Shown piece by piece: positions 36,882 through 58,216 of a DNA stretch of 64,000 nucleotides. Source of the DNA: a virus (Duplodnaviria > Caudoviricetes); the IMG/VR virus record IMGVR_UViG_3300012971_001434, positions 3,013-67,012 of that record; one strand, given 5' to 3'. Position 1 is the first letter of the stretch, and each line of letters starts with the position of its first letter. Position numbers and translations under genes: made by a program. The notes under the pieces are model-generated. The model was given only the letters and a program-made list of their open reading frames with translations. It did not search any database and was not told the origin of the DNA.

Positions 36882-39800
36882 TTATTGACTGGCCACACGA
36901 TGGCGGAATTGCCGCCGGCTCCCCTGCCCAGTATAGGCCTGGAGAATTTCTTGCGCTGCGAGCGCGCGATTCCACACCTGGAGATCATCGATGGTGCCGG
37001 CTTCCGCGAGCCCAGGTCCGGCGCTACAGACGCGGAAGGCCCCGCCTGGGGAGGCCGGTGCCGGGGCCGCCGTATTCACGGACGGTTGCCCATTGAGGTA
37101 CGCCCTGAGCGTGCTGCCGTCATACGTCGCGGCGAGATGCAGCCACGTCTGCGCCGGCAGCGGTGCCGGCGTTTGCGGGTATTGCAGGAGCGTCCAGCCC
37201 TGTGTGGCGTTGTACATGCCCCAGGCCTGCTGGTACGCCAGGGTACTATGGGACCAGAAAAACCCCCAGGCGGTGAGGGACCCCCCGTCGGTGAGGGGGC
37301 TGCGATACGTGCTCGCGGTGGGCGCCATGTCCGCCTTCCACCAGAACATGGCTGTCCACTGCGGCAGGTCAAGGGCCGTGGCATTCTGGGCCATATCCGT
37401 GCCGTTGCAGTGTAGGGCAGAGGGCCCGACGCGCCCCGTCACCCAGGTGAGCCCCGTATTGCTGAAGTCGAGGGGGCGTAGCCCGGCCAGATCCGCGGCG
37501 GTGGTGCCGGTGCCGTCATCAAAGGGCCAGTGCGCGACCTGGCCGCCGGTCGGTTGGGGTCCAGCGGCTTCCCAGGCCCCCACGTCCCAGGCGCCGCCGG
37601 TCGGCTGGGGCCGCTGCGTGCCGCCATAATCGCTCGTGGTGGCGGTGCCCACCGGCGTGCCGGTATCAATCGCCGGGCTTATTGGCGGCCCGCGCCGGAC
37701 TTGGAAATCGGTGGGCACCGCGGGGGGCGCCGTGACAAACAGCGGATCCTGGCCGAGCACATTATGATCGATGGCATTGCCCGTGGAGCCGTTGTTCACC
37801 GTGACCTGATCCGTGTCATTGTGCCAGCACAGGATATTGCGCAGGACATTGCTGTTGGAGGGCTGACTGGTGCCCGGTTTGGACACCTGCACGCAGGTAC
37901 CACGGCCGTTCCAGATGGTCAGATTCGCCACCAGGTTGGTCAGCGACGTCTGCGTGCCACAGGCCCCGCCGAGGATGAGACTATCGGCTTGCGGCGCCGC
38001 CCCAAACGTGCCACTCCCGGCAATAATCGTATTGTAGAGCTGATTGCTCTGGCCGCCACAGGCGAGCAGCACGCCGGCGCCAGTGGTATGGACAAAGCTA
38101 CCCCGCACGATGTTCGAGCCCCCGGCACTGAGTCCCGCCAGCGTCAGTCCTGGGCCTTGCGTCTGCGTGATGTCGAGCGCTTGCAGCGTCGAATCGGAGC
38201 CGCCGAAGGCGACACCCACCCCCGGACAGGTGCCGCCGCTTGAGCCGGTGCCAATGGCGCGCACCGTCAGGTCATTCAGCGTCAGCCCGTACGCCGCCTG
38301 GTCCACCTGCACGGCAACCGAGGGCGTACTGGCGGTGCAGGGCGCATGCTCCGGGAAATCGTGCAACGTGAGATGCTGGAGGCGGATATCATGCGAACCG
38401 CTGCGCGCCCCGCTGGTCCCGGTGGCCCCCACCGCGACGCCGGTCGCCTGGGTGCCGGTGGGGAGCTGCGAGCCATCCAGCTGCAACCCATCGACCGTGA
38501 CAAACGCCACCCCGCCGCTGCGCGTCGTGCCGAGCGGCATCATGGCCGACCCGGCGGCCAGCGTCGTCGGTTGCAGGATGGCATTGCCGCGGTTCGTCGC
38601 CTTGATCGTCGTCACCACCGTACTGCTCGTGCCACTGGGCACCGTATCGGGCAGCGCCTCGTGATAGGTGCCGTCGGCAATCTGGAGGGTATCACCACTG
38701 TGCAGACAAGCGATGCCTTTGGTGATGGTATTGACCGGCGTCGTACTACTGACGGCCGCAGGGCAGGCATTATCCGGTGCTCCGGCCTGTACGTAGTAGG
38801 TGGTGGGTCCCACCTGTCCCACCACACCGTAGGGCTGGCCAAAAAACGGCCAGGCCATGGGATCGGCCTGCGTAGCGCTATTGGTGCTCGTATCGTGCCA
38901 GTATTGTTGCCCGTCTTGTAGGGCGGTGTTATTGGAAAAGACGCGCATGGCCATGTAGGTCGACATATAGGTGTAGAGATCGGGATGGCCGGTGAGCGAC
39001 GACGGACGATAATCGGTCTGGAGGCGGGTTTTGACACCCAGCAGGTAGTTCCCCAGGATTTGCTGGCCGGGAAACCCGCTAAAGACGCCGCTCATGCCAT
39101 TGTGATAGGCCATCATGGCGGACGTCGCCACGCTATTGAACTGAAAATAATGATAGCTGCCGTCGTCTTGTTTGGTGCCAGGGTTATTCTCACAGTTGTA
39201 GCAATTGGTGTACCAGGAGTTGAGATCCCCGGCATAATCAAACCGCTCGCGCCCGTAACTGTCGATATTGGCCCCGGACGGAAAGAGCGTGCGGATAAAC
39301 ATCACGAGATCGTAGCGATTCGTGCCGTCGGGGGGTGCGTTCGAGCCGTCATAGGTGAAGCGGTCATGCGGCCAGCCACTATCGGCCCAGTAATCAATCG
39401 AGGCCTGATCGCCCGACATGATGGCCTGCGGCAAATGATTCCAGATATCGTGGGAATACGAGTTGACGTATTCGCCCACGGTCATCCCTTCATGGGTCGG
39501 GGGGGTCCACCCCTGCGATTGATCGGTTTGGTGATCTTGAAAGTTGCCGTTGTTGGCGCCCGAGGAGTATTTAAACCAGTCCCGCGTCGACTGATGCTCA
39601 CTGGCAGACATCGTGTTGGGGTGATAGGCCAGGAGCAGATCGTACATCAGGGCATTCGGAAAGCCACTAAACCCATACCCGGTGCTCTTGAACCAATCGC
39701 CATCATAGCCCGGATGCGGCCAGCTCGTGGGGAAGGCGAGCAGTGCCGCGCGAATGGCGTCGGCTTTGGCCTGCGTCGGCTCGAGCATGTACGTAATCGC

Positions 39801-40112
39801 CGCCCGCGTATTGGTGCGCCACGGTTCATAGGCATCGGGGTTGTTGACATTCCCGGCCACCGCCAGCACGCCTTGATACAGGCTGGTATAGCGCTGCCAC
39901 AGCCAGTCCGGCGTATGGTAGACGAGCAGTTGCGTGCGCATCTGGTCAATTTCGGCTTGCGTCCAGAACAAGCGGGGATTGGCCCCCGCGGGAATGGGGA
40001 CGACGCGGCCCCAGAGACCTTTGGTGGTATTATCGGCGGGCTGCGCCTCGGCCAGCGTCGTGCTCAGCACGAGCAGGAGTGCCAGCGCGCCCCAGTGCCA
40101 GCGTTGTCGCAT
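36882..40112 (-). CDS. secreted multidomain protein: alpha-helical lyase-like + beta-helix + LamG
   Basis: Signal peptide MRQRWHWGALALLLVLSTTLAEA; RLFWTQAEID; PbH repeats; SPAIDTG..WDVGAWE; LamG WLHLAATYDG. Confidence 0.85.
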   Translation of the reverse strand: MRQRWHWGALALLLVLSTTLAEAQPADNTTKGLWGRVVPIPAGANPRLFWTQAEIDQMRTQLLVYHTPDWLWQRYTSLYQGVLAVAGNVNNPDAYEPWRTNTRAAITYMLEPTQAKADAIRAALLAFPTSWPHPGYDGDWFKSTGYGFSGFPNALMYDLLLAYHPNTMSASEHQSTRDWFKYSSGANNGNFQDHQTDQSQGWTPPTHEGMTVGEYVNSYSHDIWNHLPQAIMSGDQASIDYWADSGWPHDRFTYDGSNAPPDGTNRYDLVMFIRTLFPSGANIDSYGRERFDYAGDLNSWYTNCYNCENNPGTKQDDGSYHYFQFNSVATSAMMAYHNGMSGVFSGFPGQQILGNYLLGVKTRLQTDYRPSSLTGHPDLYTYMSTYMAMRVFSNNTALQDGQQYWHDTSTNSATQADPMAWPFFGQPYGVVGQVGPTTYYVQAGAPDNACPAAVSSTTPVNTITKGIACLHSGDTLQIADGTYHEALPDTVPSGTSSTVVTTIKATNRGNAILQPTTLAAGSAMMPLGTTRSGGVAFVTVDGLQLDGSQLPTGTQATGVAVGATGTSGARSGSHDIRLQHLTLHDFPEHAPCTASTPSVAVQVDQAAYGLTLNDLTVRAIGTGSSGGTCPGVGVAFGGSDSTLQALDITQTQGPGLTLAGLSAGGSNIVRGSFVHTTGAGVLLACGGQSNQLYNTIIAGSGTFGAAPQADSLILGGACGTQTSLTNLVANLTIWNGRGTCVQVSKPGTSQPSNSNVLRNILCWHNDTDQVTVNNGSTGNAIDHNVLGQDPLFVTAPPAVPTDFQVRRGPPISPAIDTGTPVGTATTSDYGGTQRPQPTGGAWDVGAWEAAGPQPTGGQVAHWPFDDGTGTTAADLAGLRPLDFSNTGLTWVTGRVGPSALHCNGTDMAQNATALDLPQWTAMFWWKADMAPTASTYRSPLTDGGSLTAWGFFWSHSTLAYQQAWGMYNATQGWTLLQYPQTPAPLPAQTWLHLAATYDGSTLRAYLNGQPSVNTAAPAPASPGGAFRVCSAGPGLAEAGTIDDLQVWNRALAAQEILQAYTGQGSRRQFRHRVASQ

Positions 40113-40152
40113 CAGTGTCCCCTTCTTGCACGACGACGTGCCAAGACGCGGC

Positions 40153-43100
40153 TCAGTGGCCAATGGCCCGGTGGGCCACGCGGCGCCCCAGCGGGCGTCC
40201 GTTGTACTCCAAGTGCACCTCGTTCGCCGAGAGCGTCCGGTTCCAGAGTTTCAGCTCATCGATCATCCCACTCCACGGATAGGCTCCGGCCGCATTGCCA
40301 CACACGAAGAGTTGATCGGTGGGTGGTATCATCGCGCCCACATTCTGCACCACCGTACTCTGTGCGCCATTGACGTAGAGACGCATGGTGTTGGCGGGGG
40401 ACTCGAACGTCAGCGCCACATGATTCCAGGTGTTGGGGGACAGCAGCGCGCCGGGAATCTGCGCGATGTTGTACACGTTGGAGACATTGTGATGGTAGGC
40501 CGACTGCGTATCGGTGGCTGTGGGGTGATCCCAGACAAACCCAAACGCGTCGCCCGTCCCGGTGGTGTAATTGCCATTAATAAACACGGTGCTGGCGGTC
40601 GCGGTGGTCGGCGTGGCGACACCCTGGATCCACGCCATCCACGTATAGGCCGTGAGGCCGGTAAAGGCGGGCGTCGTGGCTCGCCCGGTGTTGCCCTGAC
40701 ATTTGAGTGCCCCGCTGCCGACCTGTCCTGGCCCCCAGGTGACACCCGACGACAGCGTCAGGGTATGGCCATTCCCCGTGCTATCCGCCGCCGTGGTGCC
40801 CGTGCTCTCCTCGAACTTCCACCAGGCGATCGGCCCGGCCGCTGTGCTGCCAGGCCCCGCCGTTTCCCACGCGCCCACGTCCTGCTGCGTGCCTTGCTTG
40901 CGGGGATTGCCGCCGTAGTCGGTGGTGGACCCGCTCAGGGTCGTGGTGACCCCGGCATCGATCGCGGGGGACGTCGGCGGCCCGACCTGCACCTGAAAAT
41001 CCGGCGCCGTCACCGGCGGACTCGTGACAAAGAGCGGATCGCCGTAGGGCGGCGCCGTCGAGCCGGTGACCAGGTTGTGGTCGATGGTATTGCCCGTGCC
41101 GCTGACCACCGTCACGGCATCGCTTGGTGTCCCCGTGATGTCGTTTTGCCAGCACAGGTTGTTCTGGATGGTGTTGGTGTTCGAGGGGCCGGCCGTGACG
41201 CCCGTCGTCGTCCCCACCTGGATGCAGGTCCCGGCGCCGTGGTAGATGGTATTGTTGACCAACACATTCCCACTGGAGGTCTGACTGGCGCAGGTGCCCC
41301 CGAGCACCAGCGTGCCGGTTTGCGGCGCTACGCCGTAGCGCCCGATCTGACTAAGAATATTATTATAAAACTGGTTATTGGTGCTGCCGCAGGCCAGTGC
41401 GACCGCACCGCCACTGTCGTGAAAAAAACTGTTGCGGAGGATATTATTGCCGCCTGACGCTGACGTGTCGCCGCGGGAGAGAGCCGCGCCCTGACAGTGA
41501 TCGACTTCCACCCCGTCCAGGGTCGAGTTGCTCCCATTGTGCCCGAGGCAAAGGCTGCATACCTGGCCCGCCGTGGCGCCGCTGCCGATATAATCAATAT
41601 GACTCCTGGTGAGCTGTATCCGGGTATCCGCACCGGTCGTGAGGAAGCCCACCGACTCCTGCCCGACGGCACAGGACGCCGTCTGATGATTGGGGAGGGC
41701 GCGAATCTCCATGTTGGTGAAGACCAAGTCACTGGAGCCGCCCCCCGAGGCCGTGCCGGTGGCCACGCCACGCGCCTGCTGTCCCGCCGGCAGGCGGGAG
41801 CCATCCAGCGTCAAACCATCGATCGTGATCCACTGCTTGCCGTTGGCGGTCTGCGGCCCCACATTGACGATGGCCGTACTTCCCGAGGGCAGCGTCTGCG
41901 GTTGCAGTATGACGCTCCCGGTGTTCGTGGTGTGCTGCGTCTGGATCACCGTGGGGCTCCCGAGTTGGCCCGAGGGAATGCCGTCCCCGATTCCCTCCGT
42001 ATAGGTCCCGTCCATGACGATGACCTTTTGTCCGCCCTGGAGGCACGACAGCACGCCAGGGCCGGTACTGTCGTCTTGAAAGGTGTGCTTGGCAAAAGTC
42101 GACTGCTGCGCCGCCGTACAGTTATTCCCATTGAGGCCGTTCGGACTGATGTAGTAGGGCCCCGTCACTTGGGGCTGGCCTTCTGGGATGGAATCAGAAC
42201 AGGTTCCCCTGGCATAACAGTCCTGCAAGATATACATCTTCGAAATGAGGGTGGGATGACTCCAATCAATATATTCGCCCGGCTGGATGCCGATTTTCGA
42301 GCCGAGATCCCCCGCGAGCACATCCGTCCTCCCGGCCACTTGTTGCATCCACCCCATCCAGGGCGCCTGCGTAATGTTGTTGGAGTTCAACCCGTTCAGA
42401 AATGACTCCAGGAGCGGCTGCGTGATCCACGGCGGCCCTGGGCCGCCGGTATCCAGCATAAAGGCCCCCTCCTCATGGAGCGCATAGACAAAGACTTTGA
42501 GTCCTTGCGGAATGACGAGCGGATTGGCGGCCGCAAAGGCATCAATGGCGGCGCGGTCCATATCGAGCCACATGCGCGAACCGACCGGCAGCCCTGGCGT
42601 GCCAGCGGTCGCCTCACAGAGCCCAGCAAAGGTGGCGGGATAGTGCGCCACACAGTCACAGAAACAGGAGGCGTAGACGTGCAGGGCATGCCGATGCTCG
42701 AGTAACTGCGTCACTTCGAGGTAGGTACTCGGGAGCACCGTCATGGCATCGCCGGCATTCAGCGCGCCGTAGTGATTGCCTGGGTCGGTAATCTTGCCCC
42801 AATAGGCCCCGTAGAGGGTATCCTGGCAGAAGGTGCCCCCGGCGACCCCCGGCGACGAGATGACGTCGCCGTCTTGCCAGTCACGGGGCTGTCCCACGTA
42901 GGTGCCCTGCGGCGACGGCGCGGTGAAACAGCCGCCCAGGCCTACCACGTCGCCATTTTGCTGCATGACCTCCATAAACGTGTCGGAGCCGTAGTTCAGT
43001 TCCCCAGACATGCGGGCGTAGGGCGGAATGTGAAAGTAATGCTTGCCATTGGCCGTCCCATCCCCCCCGGACGTCCCGAAATACGTCGCCCACATGCGCG

Positions 43101-43566
43101 AATGCCCATTGAGGGTATCACAGCCATAGTGCACGTGGGAGACCTCGCTGCCGGGCGCGCCGTCATAACAGATGACCGACACGAGCGGATCGGTGTCTTT
43201 GGCGACGTAATAGGGATGATCCTGGGTGATCCCCTGCCCATACTGCGTGGGTTTCTGCGCCTGCGCAAAATAATAATTGCTGCCGTCCGGCTGCGGCCGC
43301 GCGCTCCCACTGCTGACCAAATAATGCTGGCGCAGGATCGTCGTATTCGCCGTATCGATGTTCTGGGGATGCTCGGGCAAGCGCGCCCGCCACGGGAGAT
43401 AGGCATAGGAACAATAGTCCGCTGGCATGCCTGAGCCATTATTGGTGAGATGCGAGTAATTGTTCGGGGTACAGGGGTGGGTGAACTGGGCACGGGCCAC
43501 TCCTAAGGCCAGCCCGACCAGCACCACCGTCATGAGCAGAGGCAGCAGGTAGCGTCGCCTGCTCAT
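40153..43566 (-). CDS. secreted multidomain protein: unknown N-domain + beta-helix + LamG
   Basis: Signal peptide MSRRRYLLPLLMTVVLVGLALGVARA; same beta-helix and LamG modules. Confidence 0.85.
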   Translation of the reverse strand: MSRRRYLLPLLMTVVLVGLALGVARAQFTHPCTPNNYSHLTNNGSGMPADYCSYAYLPWRARLPEHPQNIDTANTTILRQHYLVSSGSARPQPDGSNYYFAQAQKPTQYGQGITQDHPYYVAKDTDPLVSVICYDGAPGSEVSHVHYGCDTLNGHSRMWATYFGTSGGDGTANGKHYFHIPPYARMSGELNYGSDTFMEVMQQNGDVVGLGGCFTAPSPQGTYVGQPRDWQDGDVISSPGVAGGTFCQDTLYGAYWGKITDPGNHYGALNAGDAMTVLPSTYLEVTQLLEHRHALHVYASCFCDCVAHYPATFAGLCEATAGTPGLPVGSRMWLDMDRAAIDAFAAANPLVIPQGLKVFVYALHEEGAFMLDTGGPGPPWITQPLLESFLNGLNSNNITQAPWMGWMQQVAGRTDVLAGDLGSKIGIQPGEYIDWSHPTLISKMYILQDCYARGTCSDSIPEGQPQVTGPYYISPNGLNGNNCTAAQQSTFAKHTFQDDSTGPGVLSCLQGGQKVIVMDGTYTEGIGDGIPSGQLGSPTVIQTQHTTNTGSVILQPQTLPSGSTAIVNVGPQTANGKQWITIDGLTLDGSRLPAGQQARGVATGTASGGGSSDLVFTNMEIRALPNHQTASCAVGQESVGFLTTGADTRIQLTRSHIDYIGSGATAGQVCSLCLGHNGSNSTLDGVEVDHCQGAALSRGDTSASGGNNILRNSFFHDSGGAVALACGSTNNQFYNNILSQIGRYGVAPQTGTLVLGGTCASQTSSGNVLVNNTIYHGAGTCIQVGTTTGVTAGPSNTNTIQNNLCWQNDITGTPSDAVTVVSGTGNTIDHNLVTGSTAPPYGDPLFVTSPPVTAPDFQVQVGPPTSPAIDAGVTTTLSGSTTDYGGNPRKQGTQQDVGAWETAGPGSTAAGPIAWWKFEESTGTTAADSTGNGHTLTLSSGVTWGPGQVGSGALKCQGNTGRATTPAFTGLTAYTWMAWIQGVATPTTATASTVFINGNYTTGTGDAFGFVWDHPTATDTQSAYHHNVSNVYNIAQIPGALLSPNTWNHVALTFESPANTMRLYVNGAQSTVVQNVGAMIPPTDQLFVCGNAAGAYPWSGMIDELKLWNRTLSANEVHLEYNGRPLGRRVAHRAIGH

Positions 43567-43661
43567 CTCTTGCCTGCGCCGCTTGCGTGTCCGTGTCCTT
43601 TTTGCTAGGCTGGTTTGGTGGGTCATGCAGGTGCATCCTTTTCACATCGAAAGGCCTCGTT

Positions 43662-43961: not shown

Positions 43962-43985
43962 CATCCTCAACCTGCCGCCGGGGCC

Positions 43986-46118
43986 CTAATGTTCTTCGAC
44001 GCGCCGCACGCGGCCGGCCATGCTGCGGTACAGAGCCTGCACGTCCGTATCCTGGAGATACTGGGTATAGAGGCGCACGTCATCGACCTTGCCGTTGCCA
44101 TTGACGATGTGCGCCGGTTTATTCCAGCGCCCAGCCTCAAAGGGCGTCGTCTGGGCCGTCGTGGGCGCACTAAAACTGCTACTGCTCGTCTGCGGCTGCC
44201 CATTCACCCAGATTTTGGCCTGACCGGGGCTGTTCCCATCCGCCCCGACCGCGACATGCGCCCAGGTGCCGACATAGGACGCAAAATTCAGGTACAGGGA
44301 GCCGCCCCCCGTGTGCGTGGTATCATCCCACGCGCCATACTGCCAGTAGAGATACCCATCGGGGCACGGGGCACAGACGCCGAACAGATTGGGCGTCGGG
44401 CTGGCGGTGCCCAGCGCCATCGCGCCCCCAGTCTGCACCAGCACCCAGAACATGAGGGTGACCGGCTGCTGGCTGCCGGGCCAGACAAAGGGCGTCGCCG
44501 CACTCGTCTCAACATGCTCGCCGCTCCCGGTGACCTGGAGCCCTTGCGGGCCGACCCGTGCTGGGATATGGCCGGGCAGGGGCGTGCCCGTCAGGGTGCC
44601 CGGATGATTATTCGCGGTGGCATCTGCCGCTACCGTGCCACTCGGCTCATCCAGCTTCCAATACAGATAGAGGCCAGGCGGGAGCGTCGTCACCGGCGAG
44701 CCACCCATCTCCCAGGCGCCCAGATCGCAGGTACTCCCGGCGGGTTGAGGACGGGTCTGGCCATCAAAGGCTGTGGCCATACTGGCGACATCACACAGGC
44801 CGGCGCCCAGGGCCGGCGAGGTGGCTTTGAGCTGGAAGTCCGTGGCTTTGATGCCCGCGGCCCGGTAGTCCGTACTGGAAGGCGGCATCGTCGTGACGAA
44901 CTGGGGGTCCTGGGTCATCGCGCAATTCGAGCCACTGGTGCCACACAAATTGTTACTGAGGACATTCGTCGCCGAGCCGTCCGAGAGATTGCTGATCCCT
45001 TCAGAGGAGGATGGCTGCGTCGACACACAGATATTGTTGCGCACGGTGTTGTTGCCGGAATAGACACCGCCTTGCCCAGAGGACAGCGAGAGCGCAATGC
45101 ACCGCAGCTCCCCACTTGCCCCCACATTGACCAGCGTATTGTTATAGATATAGTTATTATTGGGCTGTGCCCCCGAGCAACTGGGGCCGGTAGTAATGCC
45201 GCCGAACTGCCCGCCCGCAGCCGGGGTGACCCCAATGAGCACGCCGGTGCGGGCAATAATATTGTTGTAGACGTAGTTCGGTTGTGGGGAGCCACACATC
45301 ATGAGCGCGGCAGCGCCTATATCATGAAAATAGTTATTCCGTATAATATTATTATAGAAATGGCTCCCGGTGGAATACCCATGAATCGCAAAGCCGCAGC
45401 CGTGGTCAAATTCATTGTTTTCAATAATGTTGTTCCAGCCTGAAATATACATGGCGTAGGACACGCAGCCTTGCTCACCGGCGTTCACGGTGTTATGGTT
45501 ACGGTGCACGCCGTAATCGTGGAAATAAATGTTGCGATAGATGAAGTCATGGCCATTGCCCGCCTGCCCGGTCATGGTACAAAAGTTGGAAATACTCCCG
45601 GTATCCTGACAGCCCGACGCTTCCAGATCCAGAAACCAGATGTCATGCGCCCCGTCCGTATCCGAGGGATAGAGGCCCCCCTGCGCGCTAAAGGCGGTGA
45701 GGACATAGTCGGGATTGACGCTGATTTTCAGGCCCTGCAGCGTAATATAGCTTTTGGCGCTCCCCTGGGTCCCGTTACAGCAGCCGAGGAGAATCGCGAC
45801 CCCGCCGCCGCAGGTGGACGGCGGGGTAAACACGGCCTTGCGCTGATTCTCGGCTTTCACCGTCGTGTGCTGGGACGCCGTGCCGGACGGAATCACATCC
45901 GTCATACACTCATTATAGGTGCCATCCAGGAGCACGAGGGTATCCCCCGCGTGCAGGCAGGCGGCCCCCGCATTCGCCGTCGCAATCGCGGTGGTGGCGT
46001 TTTGCGCCGCCGCACATGACGTATTCGAGCCGCCAGGCTGCGCATAATAGGTCGTGGCGCCACAGACAGACGCGTGCAGGAGTAGTAGGGAGGCAAGGAG
46101 CCACAAACGTCGCCACAT
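43986..46118 (-). CDS. secreted beta-helix + LamG protein
   Basis: Signal peptide MWRRLWLLASLLLLHASVCGA; YYAQPGG..LHAGDTLVLLDGTY; LamG C-terminus. Confidence 0.88.
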   Translation of the reverse strand: MWRRLWLLASLLLLHASVCGATTYYAQPGGSNTSCAAAQNATTAIATANAGAACLHAGDTLVLLDGTYNECMTDVIPSGTASQHTTVKAENQRKAVFTPPSTCGGGVAILLGCCNGTQGSAKSYITLQGLKISVNPDYVLTAFSAQGGLYPSDTDGAHDIWFLDLEASGCQDTGSISNFCTMTGQAGNGHDFIYRNIYFHDYGVHRNHNTVNAGEQGCVSYAMYISGWNNIIENNEFDHGCGFAIHGYSTGSHFYNNIIRNNYFHDIGAAALMMCGSPQPNYVYNNIIARTGVLIGVTPAAGGQFGGITTGPSCSGAQPNNNYIYNNTLVNVGASGELRCIALSLSSGQGGVYSGNNTVRNNICVSTQPSSSEGISNLSDGSATNVLSNNLCGTSGSNCAMTQDPQFVTTMPPSSTDYRAAGIKATDFQLKATSPALGAGLCDVASMATAFDGQTRPQPAGSTCDLGAWEMGGSPVTTLPPGLYLYWKLDEPSGTVAADATANNHPGTLTGTPLPGHIPARVGPQGLQVTGSGEHVETSAATPFVWPGSQQPVTLMFWVLVQTGGAMALGTASPTPNLFGVCAPCPDGYLYWQYGAWDDTTHTGGGSLYLNFASYVGTWAHVAVGADGNSPGQAKIWVNGQPQTSSSSFSAPTTAQTTPFEAGRWNKPAHIVNGNGKVDDVRLYTQYLQDTDVQALYRSMAGRVRRVEEH

Positions 46119-46132
46119 GATTGTTCCCTTTC

Positions 46133-48433: not shown

Positions 48434-49351
48434 CTACCTTCCGAAAAACGGGAAAAATTGCGCAGGGTTCCCCGCCGCCGGCGCATTCATCACGCTCGGC
48501 AGCGGATTGGTAAAGAAGGCCACGGATCCCGTCTGCGTCGTCTCATACACCCGGCGCACCTCCAGGGCCGACAGCGCCCGGCTCCATACCAGAACTTCAT
48601 CGACGGCGCCGTTGAAGTACCAGCCAGGCGTCGCGCAGCACCCCGCGCCGATATTCCATGGGGTCACGGGATACGGGTAGAAAAAGGCCGCATTGAGCAG
48701 ACTCGTCACGCTCTGGCCGTCGCCGTTGTAGTACATCGCCATGCCCGGCGTCCCGGCACCGGTATGCACGACACACCAATGCTCCCACAACCCCGGCGTA
48801 TAGGGCCAGGACCCTCCCGACCACCGTATGGTTTGAGCGTCGGCATTCGTATCCCCAATCGTAAAGACGGGGTTGGAGCCCCCCACAGCATAGAAGAACC
48901 CGATGCCGATTTGATAGTTAGAGCCATCGATCGCTCCGACGACCAGTTGGGTCCCGGTCTGAATATTGGCCGCTTTGAGCCACACGCACATGCTGAGGGG
49001 TTGCGTGTCCGTCGTGAAGGTATTCTGGGTGCCCCCCGTGGCGTAGTCATTGGTGCCATCGAACGTGAGCTGCGCCAGCGAGGTACGCCGCGTCGCCCCA
49101 TTCCAGCCACTCGCGGCACTATAGCCCATGTTCGTGAGCGTGAGATGCGTGAGGGTGCCGGGCACAAGGTCATAGAAGGTATTGCCCCCGATGAGTCCTG
49201 GTACGGGCCGCCACCAGTGCAGGAGATTCTTGAGCAGCGGATGGGTCAGATCCGCCGTCACCGGACTCCAGCCGACCCCCGGCCATTGGGGCAGGGCCGG
49301 GAGCGGCAGGAGCAACCACAGGATGAGTGTGAGGATGATATACCGTTTCAT
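48434..49351 (-). CDS. secreted LamG-domain protein
   Basis: Signal peptide MKRYIILTLILWLLLPLPALP; FDGTNDY; WEHWCVVH; VDEVLVWSRALS; FFPFF tail. Confidence 0.85.
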   Translation of the reverse strand: MKRYIILTLILWLLLPLPALPQWPGVGWSPVTADLTHPLLKNLLHWWRPVPGLIGGNTFYDLVPGTLTHLTLTNMGYSAASGWNGATRRTSLAQLTFDGTNDYATGGTQNTFTTDTQPLSMCVWLKAANIQTGTQLVVGAIDGSNYQIGIGFFYAVGGSNPVFTIGDTNADAQTIRWSGGSWPYTPGLWEHWCVVHTGAGTPGMAMYYNGDGQSVTSLLNAAFFYPYPVTPWNIGAGCCATPGWYFNGAVDEVLVWSRALSALEVRRVYETTQTGSVAFFTNPLPSVMNAPAAGNPAQFFPFFGR

Positions 49352-49352: not shown

Positions 49353-49916
49353 CTATTGTTGCTCAGGAGGAATAGGAGTAAACGCACAAGAACTAGTATT
49401 GGCCACGTTTTGCAGAGACAACGTCGTGCCATTCCACACCGCAGGACTAAAATACCTCGTCGGAATCCACGCCATGCCGGACGCCGTCATGGTCGTATTC
49501 GAGGTCGTCTGATCGACCACCACCGTCCCCACCAATTTCAAGTCGCGGCGCTTATCAGCGGTCGTAAGGCTGCCGTTGCTCGTGCCCAGGGCGCCATCCG
49601 CGTAGGTGCCGTCGCTCCAACTCACATAGATCTCGATCTGCGCGCCGACGATGTTCGTCCCTGACAGGGTAAAGGAGCAGGCCCACATCCACTGGCCGGG
49701 CTGCGACCCTGCGCCTTTATCATGCCGTGCTCCGTAGACGCCGGTGAGGGTGGCAAGGTTTTGCAGGGCCATGACATGCGTACTGCCTGAATCGCTGTAG
49801 GTAACAGGAGTACCTGGACTAACATATTGTTTACTAGGAGCACCTATACTTACAGAAGATAGGGAATCAATGCCAAGTACCAGGCATATCGCAAGCAGAA
49901 GCAATCTGTATCTCAT
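49353..49916 (-). CDS. secreted phage-structural-like protein
   Basis: Signal peptide MRYRLLLLAICLVLG...; beta-rich mature part. Confidence 0.75.
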   Translation of the reverse strand: MRYRLLLLAICLVLGIDSLSSVSIGAPSKQYVSPGTPVTYSDSGSTHVMALQNLATLTGVYGARHDKGAGSQPGQWMWACSFTLSGTNIVGAQIEIYVSWSDGTYADGALGTSNGSLTTADKRRDLKLVGTVVVDQTTSNTTMTASGMAWIPTRYFSPAVWNGTTLSLQNVANTSSCAFTPIPPEQQ

Positions 49917-49927: not shown

Positions 49928-50623
49928 TCATCTTGGTCTATTACCTGTTAGAGCGTAATACACGTCCATTGATGTCAGGCTGCCCACATAGGTCATCGTC
50001 GCCGGTGTGGCCTGTTGGCCATTGCCCGCGCTCGTATCCGCAAACAGGGCCTCCCCGCGCAGCGCTTGGCGCTTGGAAATCGCATAGAGATAACTGCGCT
50101 GCGTCGCTGAGGCCCCCGTGCCACTGAAAATCTTGTCGTAGGCGCTCCTGGTCTGCGGCAGCGAAGGATTGATCTGGCCTGAACGGTTCATGACCTCCCA
50201 GCCGTCACGTTCCTGCACCGACTGCCCGATATAGGTGGTCCAGTTCCAGGTTGATCCGTCATAGGCAGTTGCCTCATAGATCTCTTTTTCACCGAGCTGG
50301 ACCCTCCACACCCAGAAGGCCGACTGCACGACGTTGTAGGCATCGGCGATGGCGGCATGGTGCGCCTCGGCTACCAGGGTGGCGAATTCAGCCTGATTGG
50401 TAATAGTAATATCAGTATTAAGCTGGATATACTGGGCATCGGTAAGACCTTGGGAGCATGCGAAAGATGCCCCCAAGAGGAGAAAAACTAGGCAGAGTGC
50501 TGGCGTTGTGATGCTGCAAGAAAAAATGCCTCGATGCGACGGAGGATCGCGGCGGCTTTCCGTGGACCAAACTTTTGCTTGAGCCAGGGCTCTGGCATGC
50601 GGCGACTTTTGCTTTGATTGCAT
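49928..50623 (-). CDS. phage-type hypothetical protein with signal-like segment; start uncertain
   Basis: LCLVFLLLGASFACSQ, then AFWVWR..W.WT..ERDGW..NPSL..IFSG; nearest in-frame ATG lies inside the HNH gene. Confidence 0.7.
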   Translation of the reverse strand: MQSKQKSPHARALAQAKVWSTESRRDPPSHRGIFSCSITTPALCLVFLLLGASFACSQGLTDAQYIQLNTDITITNQAEFATLVAEAHHAAIADAYNVVQSAFWVWRVQLGEKEIYEATAYDGSTWNWTTYIGQSVQERDGWEVMNRSGQINPSLPQTRSAYDKIFSGTGASATQRSYLYAISKRQALRGEALFADTSAGNGQQATPATMTYVGSLTSMDVYYALTGNRPR

Positions 50624-51435
50624 CCGGTTAATCCCCCACATAAGGGCACCATGTTCGTTGGAACTGTGCCGGGACAGTCTGGATGTGAGAGGGGAATCCA
50701 GTGGTCCATCTGTAATTTCCACCAAAAACCTTCTTCGGTACCACAGACAGCACACCTCTGCTGCCAATAGGTCCGTGCAAACTGTGCATCATCAACAGTA
50801 AATGTGTGTGGTTTCGCATATTTGCGGGTGCGGCGCCGATGGATATTGACCATGTTTTGGTCTCTCGACACTTTTCTCTTTGCTTTCGACCGCCTTCTCT
50901 TTGGTTGTCGAGCTTGTTTACATGGCCGGCACTGTCGTTGCAGGCCGCATAGAGACTCTGGACGTGGGGGGAAAAACTCCCGCGTTTCTGGTAAAAGGGC
51001 ATGACATGCACTGCATTCACGCAATCCATCATGGCGAAGTTTTGGAAGATGAAAATTCTTTGTGCGTTTTCGTTGGTCCTTGGCTTGCAGACACTCCTGG
51101 CATTGGCGTGTGAGGGAAGACCGTTCAGCGTCTGTTTTTCGATAAAAAAACTCCGTTGTGGCAGCCAGGAGGCGATGACATATGGAGCATTCCCGCAATC
51201 CATCTGAGCGCTTATCTCGGCGAAAACGGCGTCCAGGGATTGGCTGTCCTGCTTCGTGTGCCCGCTGTTCCAACGCCTGTCTTTGAGCCGCCTGCGTGCA
51301 CGTCTTACAGTGTGCACGCAGGGGCGTATAGAGATTGCCCGTTTTAGAGAAGTATTCGGAGGTTGCTGGGAAGCTTTCTCCGCATGTTTTACACGTTTTT
51401 GTGCAGATTTCTGGACTATACTCGTCAGTAGCCAT
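50488..51435 (-). CDS. HNH endonuclease with three tandem Zn-finger repeats
   Basis: 3x CxxC..F..CxxC, then CAVC..MDHWIP..N..PLC..CNQSK; low GC. Confidence 0.88.
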   Translation of the reverse strand: MATDEYSPEICTKTCKTCGESFPATSEYFSKTGNLYTPLRAHCKTCTQAAQRQALEQRAHEAGQPIPGRRFRRDKRSDGLRECSICHRLLAATTEFFYRKTDAERSSLTRQCQECLQAKDQRKRTKNFHLPKLRHDGLRECSACHALLPETREFFPPRPESLCGLQRQCRPCKQARQPKRRRSKAKRKVSRDQNMVNIHRRRTRKYAKPHTFTVDDAQFARTYWQQRCAVCGTEEGFWWKLQMDHWIPLSHPDCPGTVPTNMVPLCGGLTGCNQSKSRRMPEPWLKQKFGPRKAAAILRRIEAFFLAASQRQHSA

Positions 51436-51529
51436 TGCGCCTCCCGATAGGTGCAAAGGTTAGGGGTTATGCTGGTGTTCAGAGCACCAGCAGACCCCGA
51501 TATTATATAACATTTTGATTTATAATGCA

Positions 51530-54500
51530 TTAGTTTGTACTCGCAATTACCTGCAAAGAGGCCGTGTCACTACTGTACAATAGCCCCACCATGAGTTCCT
51601 TGGTGGCATCAAGCGGACAAACAGTAGGCGCACTCACAGCCGCGCTATTAATCACATTTCCTGCTACGGCAATAGTCTGCGCGGCTACGGTACACCGCAG
51701 CCGGAGCAGGAAGCGATCACCGTCCACGAGCGTGCCCGAGGTGCCGAGCGTCACGGTGCCCGCGGCGCCCGACATACTCATCTTGCAGTGATTCATCACG
51801 CCATTGCGCGCACAGTTATAGGTCGTACTGGAGGCGATGGTCTGCACGCCGGTGTCAGCGAGATACGCGGTAGTGTCGACGCTCAGCGCGCCGGTGCCGC
51901 CGCTCGTTTTCACAAAGCCATTCGTGGTGAGGTTCGCCAGGGCCGCAATCGTCGGGGTCGTGAGGGTGGCCGAGGTTGCTTTCACATAGGCGCCGCTCCC
52001 CGTCGAGCCGCTGGTATCGACACCCAGCGTCCCGACGCCTCCTGAGGTCGTCACCAGACCATTTGTCGTGAGGTTGGCCAGGGCCGCAATCGTGGGGGTC
52101 GTCAGCGTGGGTGAAGTCGCCTTCACATAATTCCCTGTTCCCGTCACCGCCACGCCCTGAATCGTCGTGGCGCTGGTCCACTCGGCCGCTTGCCCGGCGG
52201 TCGGCGTGCCACTATTGGAGACATTGCCTCCCGTTGCCGGCGTGCCCCACGTGCCATCCCCGCGCCAAAACGTCGTCGCGGAGGCCCCGGTCCCTCCATT
52301 CAAGTTCCCCGTCGGCAGATTGCCCGTGACCCCCGTACTCAGCGGGAGCCCGGTCGCATTGGTGAGCACCGCCGCAGACGGCGTCCCAAGGTTGGGGGTC
52401 GTGAGCGTGGGACTGGTCGCCTTCACATAGATGCCCGTCCCAGTCACCGCGACGCCCTGGATGGTCGTCGCACTCGTCCATTCTGCCGCTTGGCCATTCG
52501 TTGGCGTCGCCACATTGGAGACATTGCCCTTGCTATTAAACGTGCTCCAATCCGTCGCCGTGACATAGCCCTTGGTGGTCGCGGAGGCGCTTTGGCCGTT
52601 CGCATAGTCCAGCGCAATGAGCCCGTTGCCATCATCATTAAAGTCGGCGGCCGTAAACGCCGCCGCGCCTTTGGTTGTGCCATTGGCCGCGGCGTTGGCA
52701 ATGCTGAGCGTGCGGTCCGCACTGAGATCACCGCCTCCCGCCAGCGGGCTGGTCGTCGTCAGCGTCCGGCCCGTGCCGACGACGGCCGTACTGGCGCTCG
52801 GACTTTGGGCCAGGGTGACCTCGGTGCGATTCTGGGCGGCATTGTCGGCGGCCGTGATGGCCGCCCCGATAAAATTGAGCGTGCCACGCTGGGTGAGCGG
52901 GGTACTCTCCTCCTCCACCGTACTGTAGGCCTGGCCACTCCCCGAAATGGTGCAATCGGTGCGGGTAGCGCCGGCATTATCGACGCAGGTCACCCCGGCC
53001 CCCGTAAAGTTCAGGACGCTCCGAGCGGTGAGGCCCGTCCCCTCATCTTGCACCGTGGCATAGCCGCCCGCCCCCGCGGAGGCGTTGAGCGTCGTGCCGC
53101 TCATGGAGAGATTCGTGCCGAGCGTGAGTTCTTGCCAATCCCCCGTCGTCGTCCCACGTCCGAGGAGGAGCGAGGTGGTCGAGGGCGCTAGCAGATTCGC
53201 ATAGGGCAGGCGCCCGGTGACCCCGGTCGTGAGTGGCAGGCCCGTGGCGTTCGTGAGCACCAGCGTCGCGGGCGTGCCCAGGTTCGGGGTGGTGAGCGTC
53301 GGTGAGGTCGCCTTCACGTAGTTGCCGGTCCCCGTCACTGCCACCCCTTGAATCGTGGTGGCACTGGTCCACTCTGCCGTCTGCCCGGCGGTCGGCGTCC
53401 CGGAATTCGAGACATTGCCGCCTCCTCCTGGGGTGGCCCACGTGTTGTCGCCGCGCAAGAAGGTCGTACTGGACGCACCGGTACCCCCGGCTAAGTTGGC
53501 GATCGGGAGGTTACCCGTCACGCCTGTCGCCAGGGGGAGTGCGGTGGCATTGGTCAGCACGGCCGCACTGGGGGTGCCCAGATTGGGCGTCGTGAGGGTG
53601 GGGCTCGTGGCTTTCACATAGCTCCCAGTGCCGGTCACCGCCACGCCTTGAATGACGGTGGAGCTGATCCATTCCGCCGCCTGGTTCGCCGTCGGCGTGC
53701 CCGTATTGGAGACATTGCCGCCCCCGGCCGGGGTGGCCCAGATCCCATCGCCACGCCAGAAGGTGCTCGACGAGGCCGCAGTGCCTCCGGCTAAGTTGGC
53801 CACGGACAGATTCCCCGTGACGCCCGTACTGAGCGGCAACCCTGTCGCATTGGTGAGCACCGCCGCGCTCGGCGTCCCCAGGTTCGGGGTCACCAGGATG
53901 GCCGAGGTCGCTTTGACATAACTCCCAGTGCCGGTCACCGCGATCCCTTGAATGGTCGTGGCGGTGACCCATTCCGCCGCCTGGCCGGCGCTGGGTGTGC
54001 CGCTATTGGAGACATTGCCACCGCCGGTGAGGCCGCTAAAACACGACCCGCCCTTGACACACAGCTCCCCGGCTTCTGCGGGCAGGAAATGCGCCCAGTT
54101 GGTGGCCATACGATCGGGGGGCAGGAGATAGCCCTTATTCCCCTGGCGGTCCTGCCAGGCCAGATAATTGCCCAGATACGCCGCCTGGAGGTTCGCGGCG
54201 ATCAGGGTATGGCCCGTGGGGTCGATCAGCACATTGCCACTGTCCGCCCCCAGCACGCCGGCCCGGTTGTACTGGATATCCCCCGTCACCCCTGCCGGGG
54301 CCCCGCCTCCACCACCCGTGCCCGTGCCACATGGGGCGCCCGTATCGACCAGATTGAGGTTCGTATCCAGTTGCACACAGTGGCCTGGGGTAAAGGGCCC
54401 AAGGCCGGTCATGAGCGCGTGCGCGGTGCCGACCAGCGTCGTGTCCGGCGGCAGGACGATATGCGGCGACTGTTGCGAGTTGTACGTCAGGACGGCCGCG

Positions 54501-57500
54501 CCCAACCGCGCGGAATATTCATAGAGCCAGACATCTTCGGTCGGGCCCCCGGTCGTCGCCGTGGGCAGCGCAATCCCGGTATTCGCCGTCCAGAAGGCTC
54601 CCCACGTAATAGCGCGGCTGACGGTGGAATGCACCCGAAAGCGCAGCGGCTGGCTGGGACGCACCGAGCCACTCGGGATGTCAATGAGCGTGGCCTGCTG
54701 GAGGTCGCTGAGCACGAACACGTCACAGGCGTCGAGATTGAGCACCAGCGGCGTGATCGTGGTGGGCTGCGAGCACTGGCGGGGGGTGACGCGCGTCTGC
54801 GTCACTTCCTGCACATCGGTGGTGCCCAGCAGTTGCCCACTCGGCGCGGCTTTGCTGCTGATGGTGGCGACGCCCGCAGTGACGGTCGAGAGCAGGAGTC
54901 CGGTGGGGAGCGCCGCCAGATTTATACCCGCCGGCATATCGCTTGAGGGTGTGACCAGGAGGGCTTTGGCGGTACTGGAGCCCCCCGCGCTCGGCGGCGC
55001 GGCACACACCAGCGCCCCCGTCCCCTGGATGCCGGTGGCAAACGTCCCGGCCGTCGGGCACGTGAAACCCACAAAACCGGCCAGATCCCCCGTGCCCGTG
55101 GCCGCCTGGAGCGTCCCCGCAGGGCCGACCGGATTGACCAGGAACCCCGAATGCAGCGTCGGAGTGGGCGCGTTATCGACGTACTGCAACTGGCCGCTGG
55201 CGAAGGTCTGCATGGTGCCAGCCTGCCCGACCCCACTCACCAGATTCGCCGTGCCGCCCGCCAGGAAGCCCGGCTTGGTCGACGCCGTCGCCACGGTCGT
55301 GCCGGTGAGCGTCAGCCCGGCGCCCGCCAGCAGCGCGGCCTGGTAGCCGGTACACACGGTCGTCGTCGTACACACGGTCGTCGTGCCACTGAGGTTGCTG
55401 AAGTCCAACTGACTCACCGTCAGCGGGCCGCCGGCGGTGGCCTGTCGCACGACCTGATTCGCCCCGCCCGTCGCGGAGAAATCCGTCGTCCCCGCTGGCA
55501 ACGTCAGGGTGCCACTGCCCGCCACGGCGGCAGCCTGGACGGTCAGGCTCCCGGAGGTCGCGCCGAGGAGCAGGAGGCGCAGCATGGACTGGCCGGCCGG
55601 ATGCGCAAAGCTGTTGGCCTTGGTGAGGTCGGCGGCATTACTCACCATGGCCGCGGTGTAGTCGCCCGCGGTGGCGACAACGGCTCCCGTGCGCCCAAAG
55701 ACACTGCTGACCGCGCCCCCGCCGCCCCCGGCGCCGCCCCCGATATCTGAGGCACAGACAATCTCCCCCGCCACATCCATCGTCAGCTTGCCGCCGTTGG
55801 TGTCGCCCGTACAGGCCGCCGGCGTCACGTTCCATTTCAAATTGCTCTGCGTGAGATAGCCGGTATGCAGGAGGGACACGGACGCCCCATCCGTGTACTG
55901 GAGGCGGCCATCGGCCAAGACTTGCATCTTGCCCTGGTTGTACGCTCCACTCGCCAGATCCGGCACGGCGGCGACGAGAAAGCCGGGGGAGGACGACAGC
56001 GTACTGGCGACACCGCTGCTGAATTGCAGACCATTGCCCCACGTAAACGCCGGTTGCAGGCCGGTGACGGCCGTATCCACATACGTTTTCACCGCCGCTT
56101 GCGTCGGGTACAACGTGTTGCTCGTCCCCAGGCTGGTACTGGTGGCCTTATTCGCGACATTTTCTGGCGTAAAGCCGAGCGTGATGCCCTGCACCGCCGT
56201 ATCCACATAGGTTTTGACGGCGAGTTGCGTGGGATAGAGCAGGTTGCTGCCCCCCAACGTCGTACTATTCGACTTGTTCGCCACGTTTTCGGCCGTAAAG
56301 CCGAGCGCCGCCTGATAGCCCGGACACACCGTTGTCGTCGTGCAGACGGTCCCGGCACCGCCCACATCGCTGAGCGTGAGCTGACTCACCGTAAACGGTC
56401 CCCCCGAGCTGGATTGCCGCAGCACCTGGCTCGGGCCGCCGGTGCCGGAGAAATCCGTCGTGCCGGCCGGGAAGATGAGCAGCGACGTCCCGGCTTGGGG
56501 CGCCGCTTGCAGCGCCAGTTGCCCCGACGTCGCGCCGGGGAGGACGAGGCGCGACATCGTCTGGCCCGCGAAGTGCGTAAAGATATTGGCCGCCGTGCGA
56601 TCGACCGCGTTGGGAATCTGCGCGACCGTATAATCCCCCGTCTGGGCGGTGATGGCGCCGGTCCGTCCAAACACGCTCGTCACCGGCACCGGCGTGACAT
56701 CCACACTCGACGCCACGACATTGCCGTTGGCGTCATACTGGAGTTGTTTGCCCACGAGCAGGGGCCCCGTGGCGGTGAGCACCTCGAGCGTCGTGCCCGT
56801 GCGCGTGCCAGTTACGGGCGCCTGGCCGGGACCGCCGCCAAACAGCGGGGCTTGCAGGGGCAGCGCCGGCGAGGAGGCCATCGTGCTCGCGCTGGGAAAG
56901 TACAGGAGTCCCCCGCCCGTGCCGCTCGTGAGCCCGGTGCCGCCCTGGGATACCGTGACCGGCACCGTGAGGCCGGCAGCCCCGCCAATGTCCGCCGTCG
57001 AGGCCACGACGTTGCCGTTGGCATCGAACGCTAATTGTTTGTTGGGGGTGATGGTGCCAAGGACGGTCGCCAGCTCCCGCGTGGTCCCCGACAGCGTGCC
57101 GGTCACGGGCGCCTGACCCGGTCCCCCGCCCAGTAACGGGGCATTGAGCGGCAGCGTCGCGGTCGCCAGCATGGTCGTCGGCGTGCTGAAGTACAGGAGG
57201 CCTCCGGTCGAACCGCTCGTGAGTCCGGTACCGCCCTGGGGCACGGGGACGGGCAGCGCCAGGCCTCCGGTGCCGCCACCAATATCGGTGGCGCTGGCAA
57301 TGACGTTGCCGTTGGCATCAAAGGCCAATTGTTTGTTGGGGGTCAGAGCGCCCAGGACACTCGCCACCTCGAGCGTCGTGCCCGTGCGCGTGCCGGTGAG
57401 AGGCGCGTTGCCGGGGCCGCCCCCAAAGAGGGGGGCATTGAGCGGTAAGGCGCCGGTTGAGGCAAGCGTGGTCGGACTGCTAAAGTACGGCAGGCCGCCG

Positions 57501-57823
57501 GTGGTGCCCAGCGTCAGGCCGGTGCCGCCTTGTGCGACGGGCAGGGGGGCCGCCAGATGGGTGGCGGTCACCTGGCCGGCCGCTGACACATCCACGCCGC
57601 TGGGGACGAGGCCCTGCACCATGTTTGCGGTGACCGGCGCGCAGACGAGGAGTCCCGTCGTGGCAATGCCGATGCCGACCTCGTTCACACACTGACTGGC
57701 CGGAAAGGTGGGAGGGGCGCCGCCCCCACCACCCCCCGGCGGTAGGGTCTGCGCCGGCCCGTGGGCCGGCCCGAGCAGAAGCGTTCCAACTAGCAGCCAG
57801 CAGAGCAGGAGAGCACGGCGCAT
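51530..57823 (-). CDS. 2097-aa repetitive tail-fibre-like protein with signal peptide
   Basis: [24 protein letters not shown]; [47 protein letters not shown] repeats. Confidence 0.88.
52080..53990 (-). repeat. about 95-aa repeat, 5 copies (2 partial)
   Basis: [43 protein letters not shown] unit. Confidence 0.9.
56700..57550 (-). repeat. about 97-aa repeat, 3 copies
   Basis: PV.QGGTGLT.G..GGL.YF...LP..APL.GGGPG.AP.TGT unit. Confidence 0.9.
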
Positions 57824-57838
57824 GCAGGCGCTCCAGGG

Positions 57839-58216
57839 TCAAGGATTATTGCGATAATAGGTGACATACAGCGCGGCATCGGCGGTCTGGCGAATGGCCT
57901 GAAACGCGCGAATCGAATCAATCCCGCAAATGATGAACGTCTGGGGCGGCGTGCCGAAGACCGGATGGCCGACGGTCGCGGTGGGCGTGCCGCTGACGGT
58001 ATAGCGCAGATCGCCACTGTTGACACTCACCACGGCGAGGGTGGGCGTAATCCCGGTGGGTTGATAGATCGCGGCGGTGAGGCCGGTGACCGTCGTGGAA
58101 ATGGTCAGCGTTTCGGTGGCGAACGGCGCTTGCTTGACCGTGACGCCAGGACACTGCGCTTGGCTCAGCAGCGGTACGCACAGCAAGGCAAGAGCGAGCA
58201 GCCAGCGACGCAGCAT
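57839..58216 (-). CDS. small secreted protein
   Basis: Signal peptide MLRRWLLALALLCVPLLSQA; GAGG SD. Confidence 0.75.
   Translation of the reverse strand: MLRRWLLALALLCVPLLSQAQCPGVTVKQAPFATETLTISTTVTGLTAAIYQPTGITPTLAVVSVNSGDLRYTVSGTPTATVGHPVFGTPPQTFIICGIDSIRAFQAIRQTADAALYVTYYRNNP

Follow-up and report, generated by a model that had tools for sequence, protein, structure and literature searches.

A portable cassette of fiber-, lectin- and beta-helix-type genes with signal-peptide-like leaders in the tail-gene region of uncultured tailed phages

A block of nine co-oriented genes with signal-peptide-like N-termini has been found in the tail-gene region of an uncultured virus (Duplodnaviria; Caudoviricetes), IMG/VR record IMGVR_UViG_3300012971_001434. 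The window analyzed here, 64,000 nucleotides, comprises bases 3013–67012 of this 67,012-bp record, where terminal repeats have not been found; the block takes 21 kb of the minus strand, from position 58216 to position 36882 of the window. It may well be a portable cassette of phage gear for recognizing and degrading the host surface, whose members are made as Sec precursors. The initial annotation of the region predicted nine leader-bearing tail-module genes, and all nine open reading frames (ORFs) are present, eight of them with a full leader, while the ninth has lost its start to an insertion of an HNH endonuclease-like gene. The term “exported fiber or adhesin system” used in that annotation is a fair description of the block in its phage setting, because the N-termini behave as selected export signals and the proteins are of the fiber, lectin and beta-helix types. 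We have found no paper describing such a system or, more generally, secretion signals on tail-fiber modules of tailed phages.

Leaders were identified using our own heuristic, complemented by inspection by eye, the criteria for a Sec/signal peptidase I substrate being a positively charged n-region, a hydrophobic h-region of 7–15 residues and small uncharged residues at positions –3 and –1. Eight of the nine leaders contain one to three Arg or Lys residues, a hydrophobic core of 10–15 residues (mean Kyte–Doolittle value of 2.6–3.6 over 10 residues) and small residues at –3 and –1, often followed by Gln at +1. Scanning of all ORFs of the 67-kb record with the heuristic yielded almost no leaders beyond those of the cassette and of membrane proteins of the type IV secretion system (T4SS) encoded in the same record. 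Arg-Arg is present in several n-regions, but the leaders are short (20–26 residues) and strongly hydrophobic, and only the leader of the LamG protein ortholog in one of the compared elements, L002, looks like a twin-arginine translocation (Tat) signal. A twin-arginine-like leader (T-R-R-A-F-L) is also seen in an ORF of 130 amino acids (aa) from the early region of the phage genome G001 (411–803), described below. We also considered rare A/T-ending codons as a feature of the leaders, and dropped it, as the mean G+C content at third codon positions (GC3) is 0.70 vs. 0.75 for the leaders and 0.68 vs. 0.77 for control 5′ ends, that is, no lower in the leaders.

The starts of eight of the nine genes are ATG codons with AGGA/GGAG-like (Shine–Dalgarno-like) sites 5–12 nt upstream. 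This leaves hardly any room for an annotation artifact, with true starts located downstream and the hydrophobic stretches untranslated. Such an artifact might be suspected from public gene calls, which in the contig of this record and in the phage genome G002 start the 187-aa gene at an internal Met, yielding 139 aa, and from the absence of a canonical start in the 198-aa-family gene of the window. However, the 139-aa calls remove conserved mature sequence that can be aligned with signal-less relatives, and, contrary to the downstream-start objection raised in the initial annotation, the leader-extended frames are conserved in orthologs, with Shine–Dalgarno-like sites preceding the upstream ATG. 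The 198-aa-family gene retains the hydrophobic core, but the HNH gene extends over its n-region and start codon; a search for ATG, GTG or TTG near the core found none, and complete leaders are present in the orthologs from G002, L002 and L026. An HNH ORF is located at the same junction, upstream of the 198-aa-family gene, in two distant elements, the window and L001 (L001:5950–6450). In both cases the insertion removes or damages the leader, the L001 ortholog having none, and the junction looks like a homing hot spot.

The leaders being real, selected export signals is well supported by comparison. All cassette orthologs in L001, L002, L026, G001 and G002 have a leader, with the exception of the HNH-damaged L001 copy, and the leader sequence drifts among these orthologs while the mature part stays conserved. 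Orthologs of the 125-aa protein in L001 and L002 retain the leader and both Cys residues. All homologs of the 710-aa protein (37–57% identical) have leaders that differ in sequence and run into the conserved start of the mature part, TTYYA, and the leader immediately precedes this motif in distant bacterial homologs as well. In the 503-aa family, 16 of the 17 aligned homologs have a leader ahead of the conserved mature N-terminus. The most instructive case is the 187-aa family (949 representative clusters at E up to 1e-3), where the comparison with signal-less phage relatives proposed in the initial annotation has proved fruitful: most members are of approximately 162 aa and have no leader, and their start, MANKIY..., coincides with the predicted cleavage site of the leader-bearing members. 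A tblastn search with a signal-less member of this family against GenBank phages produced no match.

These observations also bear on the possibility that the leaders are uncleaved signal-anchors that hold the proteins on the outer surface of the inner membrane, where they would form a barrier or a platform for assembly, which we consider improbable. The leader of the 305-aa LamG protein indeed has a poor –3/–1 site (A-L-P before Gln), and the G001 and G002 cassettes open with a 156-aa protein having a single N-terminal membrane helix, as such tethering might require. Still, most members have a good A-x-A-type site a few residues past the short core, homology to signal-less relatives starts right at the cleavage site, and the leader sequence is unconserved, as expected of a part that is removed.

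A second line of evidence comes from cysteines. The number of Cys residues in the mature part is even in 34 of 37 cassette proteins from six elements, vs. 35 even and 30 odd numbers among other proteins of three genomes. Orthologs of the 2097-aa fiber-like protein in five elements, ranging from 552 to 1344 aa, all have a leader and an even count, the number of mature cysteines in the family varying widely (22, 12, 12, 20, 14, and 10). Cysteines therefore seem to be gained and lost in pairs, and this parity points to disulfides and hence to folding outside the cytoplasm. In the 187-aa family, the Cys pair (C80, C177) is present in 31 of 36 members with a leader and in none of 101 members without it, a difference that comprises two to three independent contrasts only.

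The cassette is found in several other elements, and its distribution is informative. Two IMG/VR records, G001 (54,684 bp) and G002 (54,145 bp), represent genomes rated as complete, with direct repeats at the termini. Both are podovirus-like, with a portal, the head-closure protein Hc3, an internal virion protein with a transglycosylase (SLT) domain, and a P22-type coat protein 39% identical to that of Xanthomonas phage PBR31. They have almost nothing in common with the window except for the cassette, the core genes of which are 70–86% identical. In G001 the cassette sits after the internal virion proteins, that is, in the slot of a T7-type fiber gene, in L002 it is located after the terminase, and in all elements compared it follows phage virion genes, taking 12–21 kb of the 54–67 kb genomes. 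A 92-kb JGI contig (L026/L034) combines podovirus-type internal proteins, the cassette, and TraF, VirD4, and VirB4; here (L026) a pectate-lyase-like protein with a leader is encoded in the same cassette slot. As a side observation, the terminase ORF comprises 1123 aa in G001 (44564–47935) and 477 aa in G002 (44657–46090), with the same N-terminus, which suggests an intein or another insertion in the former.

The co-occurrence of the cassette with TraF, VirD4, and VirB4-type genes, both in this record and in L026/L034, would fit the proposal of the initial annotation that the block provides the T4SS of the replicon with a surface appendage or mating adhesins. This proposal is not supported, and we regard it as very improbable. 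In complete G001 and G002 we observe neither a TrbI match nor a BLASTP match to any T4SS ORF of the window, and in all elements the cassette follows virion genes; the cassette is therefore portable and phage-associated, and does not depend on a T4SS. The presence of virion-type genes (36882–63671) and a T4SS (634–16058) in one record, and likewise in the independent L026/L034, is an observation in its own right and may indicate a recurrent phage–conjugative hybrid.

The composition of the cassette is mixed. Repeat units of the 2097-aa protein share 66% identity with those of a signal-less protein of 551 aa from the cultured Bradyrhizobium phage ppBjS10J-1, encoded there just before the lysis genes, and its C-terminal domain of 110 residues, with four Cys, is conserved in every ortholog. 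No match to this protein was found among PDB sequences with phmmer, nor to its first 400 residues among GenBank phages with tblastn. For the 187-aa jellyroll, the top fold match is XepA (Z 10.0), which is not clear of other jellyrolls, is reportedly classed with non-classically secreted proteins, and was not taken as a relative. LamG domains (PF13385) are present in five cassette proteins with scores of 38–76 bits, compared to the gathering cut-off of 27.6. The alignment of the 305-aa LamG family takes in a signal-less homolog from L029, and a signal-less pair formed by a 162-aa jellyroll and a LamG protein is present in other uncultured phages, L028 and L029. In L028 (11070–16161; GC 53%, an unrelated phage), this pair is followed by three leader-bearing Cys-rich proteins with 14, 19, and 6 Cys, one of them with a Pel9A-like beta-helix.

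The model of the 503-aa protein has three domains. The N-terminal one (27–155) is a cement/decoration-like jellyroll with Z scores of 10.7–12.5 to proteins of HFTV1, Sf11, T1, TW1, and phi29 gp8.5 (12.5 to the HFTV1 capsid protein and 10.7 to the gp8.5 base, with 113–127 residues aligned). The middle domain (257–370) is similar to the XD-like docking-type domain of tailspikes (Z 7–9.6, the highest value being to the Solidus tailspike), and the tip (372–503) is a jellyroll with Z 8.4 to a fiber of phage 7-7-1. Searches in the ESM Atlas produced only weak viral leads for this protein and only unnamed viral clusters (scores 0.90–0.92) for the 198-aa family, with no function in either case. Neither the 125-aa nor the 198-aa family has recognizable relatives in Pfam, PHROG, or NCBIfam.

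The three large proteins at the end of the cassette are, as judged by their domains, of the bacterial secreted type rather than classical tailspikes, and no particle-binding domain is seen in them. The beta-helix family PF13229 is above its cut-off of 25.9 in the 1137-aa protein (29.8) and sub-threshold in the 710-aa and 1076-aa ones, although homologs of the 710-aa protein carry it. Of the domains listed by the initial annotation, fiber-type repeats, LamG, and one beta-helix hold, whereas the other beta-helix matches are weak. All three proteins score above the 25-bit cut-off of the NCBIfam model NF041518 (choice-of-anchor Q of bacterial surface proteins), and the 1137-aa protein shares 50% identity with a protein of G002. 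Distantly related to the three are ordinary beta-helix proteins secreted by bacteria, which start with a leader and TTYYV. A classical tailspike adaptor (P22 gp9 type) was not found in the 710-aa family, the mature part of which begins at the helix cap motif after the leader, as in the bacterial secreted relatives. The beta-helix/LamG proteins have probably kept an ancestral leader, and the fiber-type members appear to have acquired theirs. The three proteins and their homologs end in a basic Arg-x-Arg-His-like tail, and the 305-aa LamG family ends in QFFPFF plus one residue (48434–48460); these conserved C-terminal tails may be docking or sorting signals.

These data are compatible with the following scheme. 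Late in infection, or from a promoter of their own, the cassette proteins would be translated with cleavable signal peptides, exported through SecYEG across the inner membrane and trimmed by signal peptidase I, often exposing Gln, and would then fold and form disulfides in the oxidizing periplasm. The features required for these steps are present, given the leaders, cleavage-type sites, and paired cysteines seen in the sequences and their comparison. The proteins would then be retained in the periplasm until the envelope is disrupted by holin, endolysin and spanin, whereupon they would leave the cell alongside particles assembled in the cytoplasm. Such retention presumes a diderm host, indicated by VirB9/CagX in this record and by a spanin-like lipoprotein ORF in G001. 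Export, cleavage, periplasmic disulfides, and retention until lysis would follow from what is established about Sec, LepB, and Dsb. At lysis, the fiber-type core (the 2097-aa fiber, the 187-aa jellyroll, the LamG protein, and the 503-aa cement/XD/tip protein) would most likely dock on the particles, and the three beta-helix/LamG enzymes would most likely act free, binding or cutting glycans.

Docking of the core is a possibility that we put forward tentatively. More tentative still is the complete scenario, in which the host-recognition apparatus (fiber, lectins, and tip) is exported via Sec, oxidized in the periplasm and docked at lysis on a particle built in the cytoplasm, while traveling as one cassette among unrelated phages and phage–T4SS hybrids. 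Docking is favored by the fiber slot, the virion-type folds, the 12–21 kb investment, the behavior as a host-range module, and the case of Cellulophaga phage phi18:3. As to the behavior, movement between unrelated backbones at 70–86% identity is what might be expected of host-range modules. In phi18:3 (NC_021794), a cultured podovirus, three consecutive leader-bearing proteins, gp085–087, are annotated as structural or tail based on tandem mass spectrometry (MS/MS) in the record, while its other structural proteins have no leader. They resemble the cassette proteins by their leaders, belong to a phage with a host from another phylum, and contain few cysteines (0, 1, and 3).

Several considerations weigh against this scenario. 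Fibers usually have a backbone-specific attachment domain, whereas here the proteins are conserved over their entire length, including the N-termini, even in backbones whose tail genes differ. The beta-helix proteins begin at the helix cap, as bacterial secreted enzymes do, and carry a domain typical of bacterial surface proteins. Polysaccharide-modification genes adjoin the cassette, and a strong sigma-70-like site precedes it, as in morons. This site is the top match within 43–60.5 kb and falls in the 234-nt space upstream of the first cassette gene, with a predicted transcript leader of about 180 nt. The association of the leader with the Cys pair in the 187-aa family amounts to approximately three state changes on the tree and is descriptive, carrying no statistical weight. 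The Cellulophaga MS/MS data come from another phylum and could reflect a co-purified secreted protein. Finally, we infer export, cleavage, and disulfides alike, and to our knowledge no tailed phage adds fibers after export.

Alternatively, the cassette could be a moron-like kit of exported accessories that stay off the particle and have a free or envelope-directed role, an explanation that we find only slightly less likely than docking and by far the most serious of the alternatives. The proteins could act on the envelope and matrix of the infected or carrier cell, trimming or masking polysaccharide receptors from the periplasmic side, which would provide superinfection exclusion or prevent re-adsorption to debris; they could also loosen exopolysaccharide (EPS) for release, or serve as soluble lectins or depolymerases after lysis. 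Exported genes in tail regions have precedents in lambda lom and bor, T5 llp, and cor. The bacterial secreted type of the beta-helix/LamG proteins (a leader and TTYYA, with the choice-of-anchor-Q domain), the pectate-lyase-like protein in the same slot of L026, the placement of the best sigma-70-like site of the region just upstream, the adjoining membrane GT2 and EPS-type amidotransferase, and the transfer of the cassette as a whole between unrelated backbones all agree with this explanation, as does the precedent of WceF, an exported EPS enzyme with a tailspike fold (PMC7949094). On the other hand, accessories with no place in the virion would be costly at a third of a 54-kb genome, folds and repeats of the virion type are seen in the core members, and the genes occupy the fiber slot of a structural operon. 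Moreover, soluble enzymes would be freed by lysis alone, so that a leader needs a reason such as disulfide formation.

The known systems closest to the cassette include tail-fiber and branched tailspike modules of podoviruses (the T7 gp17 slot; XD docking of the CBA120 TSP4 and T4 gp10 type). The cassette is similar to them in its position after the SLT-domain internal virion protein, in the fiber repeats of a real phage protein, in the XD-like domain of the 503-aa protein, and in exchange between phages, and differs in having leaders throughout, paired cysteines, and no visible backbone-specific attachment domain; also unlike podovirus tailspikes, its beta-helix members (710-aa family) begin directly with the helix. 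Capsid cement/decoration proteins and the phi29 head fiber gp8.5 have the same jellyroll as the N-terminal domain of the 503-aa protein, and in gp8.5, as here, further domains follow. However, the 503-aa gene has a leader and is located in the fiber slot, not beside the coat gene, and its N-terminal domain has no sequence similarity to the small G001 protein encoded beside the coat gene (hhalign of the 503-aa family against this 146-aa protein was negative).

The nearest published description that we have found concerns Porphyromonas gingivalis phages, which have genes of unknown function with Sec signals and Gln at +1, for which outer-membrane modification was suggested (Matrishin et al., 2023; PMC10367356). 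That paper does not tie the signals to fiber or tail modules and reports no cassette and no cysteine pattern. WceF from Pantoea stewartii is an exported beta-helix with a tailspike fold and no capsid adaptor, acting on exopolysaccharide; unlike the cassette, it is a single chromosomal gene within an EPS synthesis cluster and has a Tat signal (PMC7949094).

Coordinates of the cassette genes and adjacent features are given in Table 1.

Table 1. Features of the cassette and its surroundings (window coordinates). For the nine cassette genes, the upper coordinate is the start used, that of the 198-aa-family gene (about 50545) being unsure. pLDDT, predicted local distance difference test.
Feature	Position	Strand	Basis or remarks
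S74-type tail fiber, no leader, directly upstream of cassette	58730..59776	–	PF13884 E 1.6e-6; tail-fiber PHROGs to E 7.7e-15
Sigma-70-like promoter match: TTGACA, 18 nt, TACAAT	58397..58426	–	consensus match 11/12, ~180 nt upstream of first cassette gene
125-aa small protein with leader, two conserved Cys	57839..58216	–	A/Q cleavage site; no family match
2097-aa fiber-like repeat protein with leader, 22 mature Cys	51530..57823	–	repeats like Bradyrhizobium phage protein
HNH endonuclease-like ORF, insertion, outside kit	50488..51456	–	HNH-type motif in translation; no Pfam match
198-aa-family protein, start uncertain	49928..50545	–	84% identical to G002 ortholog with full leader
187-aa TNF/C1q/CBM-type jellyroll with leader, one Cys pair	49353..49916	–	model pLDDT 92; jellyroll matches Z 8–10
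305-aa LamG lectin-like protein with leader, conserved aromatic C-terminal motif QFFPFF	48434..49351	–	PF13385 E 1.8e-17
213-aa Cys-rich ORF, outside kit, between LamG and 503-aa genes	47779..48420	+	ORF and translation only; no Pfam match
503-aa three-domain protein with leader, 14 mature Cys	46133..47644	–	model pLDDT 75; fold matches per domain
710-aa beta-helix, choice-of-anchor-Q and LamG protein with leader	43986..46118	–	PF13385; NF041518 27.2 bits
1137-aa protein with leader: unknown-family N-domain, beta-helix, choice-of-anchor-Q and LamG; 24 mature Cys	40153..43566	–	PF13229, PF13385, NF041518 34.2 bits
1076-aa protein with leader: N-domain, beta-helix-like region, choice-of-anchor-Q and LamG; 12 mature Cys	36882..40112	–	PF13385; NF041518 28.9 bits; A/Q site
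Asparagine-synthase-type amidotransferase and membrane GT2 glycosyltransferase, convergent with cassette end	33944..36877	+	Pfam; NCBIfam TIGR01536

The minus-strand genes running from 63.7 to 36.9 kb, convergent with those preceding them in the window, encode a 1290-aa repeat protein, the S74-type tail fiber, and then the cassette. The S74 fiber, which the initial annotation correctly described as leaderless, is assigned by the C-terminal intramolecular chaperone domain PF13884 (28.8 bits vs. the cut-off of 22; residues 228–281), whereas the sole basis for the baseplate label given there to the 1290-aa ORF is a weak baseplate-wedge PHROG match (E about 1e-3). An 88-aa ORF (58451–58717, minus strand) between the S74 fiber gene and the cassette has GC3 of 0.85, is helical-looking, and has no leader. 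Within the block, the plus-strand 213-aa ORF is probably a homing-endonuclease-like insertion. Separating the 710-aa and 1137-aa genes is a gap of 419 nt that contains a plus-strand 124-aa ORF (43587–43961) with GC3 of 0.78, a hydrophobic N-terminal stretch, and several Cys, with no match in G001 or G002.

Genes of the T4SS and relaxase are located on the plus strand at 2–16 kb, with matches to VirD4, VirB8, VirB9/CagX, TrbI, and MobA/MobL, and weak matches to VirB4 and TrbL. Judging by its gene content, this is a complete-looking P-type system (634–16058; TraF-like S26, VirD4, VirB4/8/9/10, TrbL, and relaxase). The region of 17–37 kb encodes, according to Pfam, a helicase, a methylase, DUF3987, RecT, the asparagine-synthase-type amidotransferase, and GT2. 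The amidotransferase partly resembles the XrtA/PEP-CTERM EPS amidotransferase, and GT2 has C-terminal membrane helices; the two may modify surface polysaccharide, their tie to the cassette being putative.

As for the host, the best matches of VirD4 are alphaproteobacterial TraG proteins (36% identical), and the repeat match to the Bradyrhizobium phage is only a hint. Megablast of the window against plasmids and phages produced no match, and a scan of genome contigs with the 710-aa family identified distant beta-helix/LamG proteins only, with no prophage or host. The stretch is present in three soil metagenome DNA runs, with no RNA run among them.

In textbook tailed-phage assembly, all steps take place in the cytoplasm. 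A host-recognition kit folded in the periplasm would, if real, constitute a new assembly step and explain how fibers could carry disulfides. It would also change the prediction of receptor-binding proteins, as annotation pipelines trim or mis-start such genes (the 187-aa protein being called as 139 aa), as well as the reading of virion proteomes, and in phage engineering such proteins would be best expressed in the periplasm rather than in the cytoplasm. If, on the contrary, the proteins never join the particle, soil phages would carry in this cassette an exceptionally large set of secreted proteins modifying the envelope and matrix, which would matter for biofilm and exopolysaccharide turnover.

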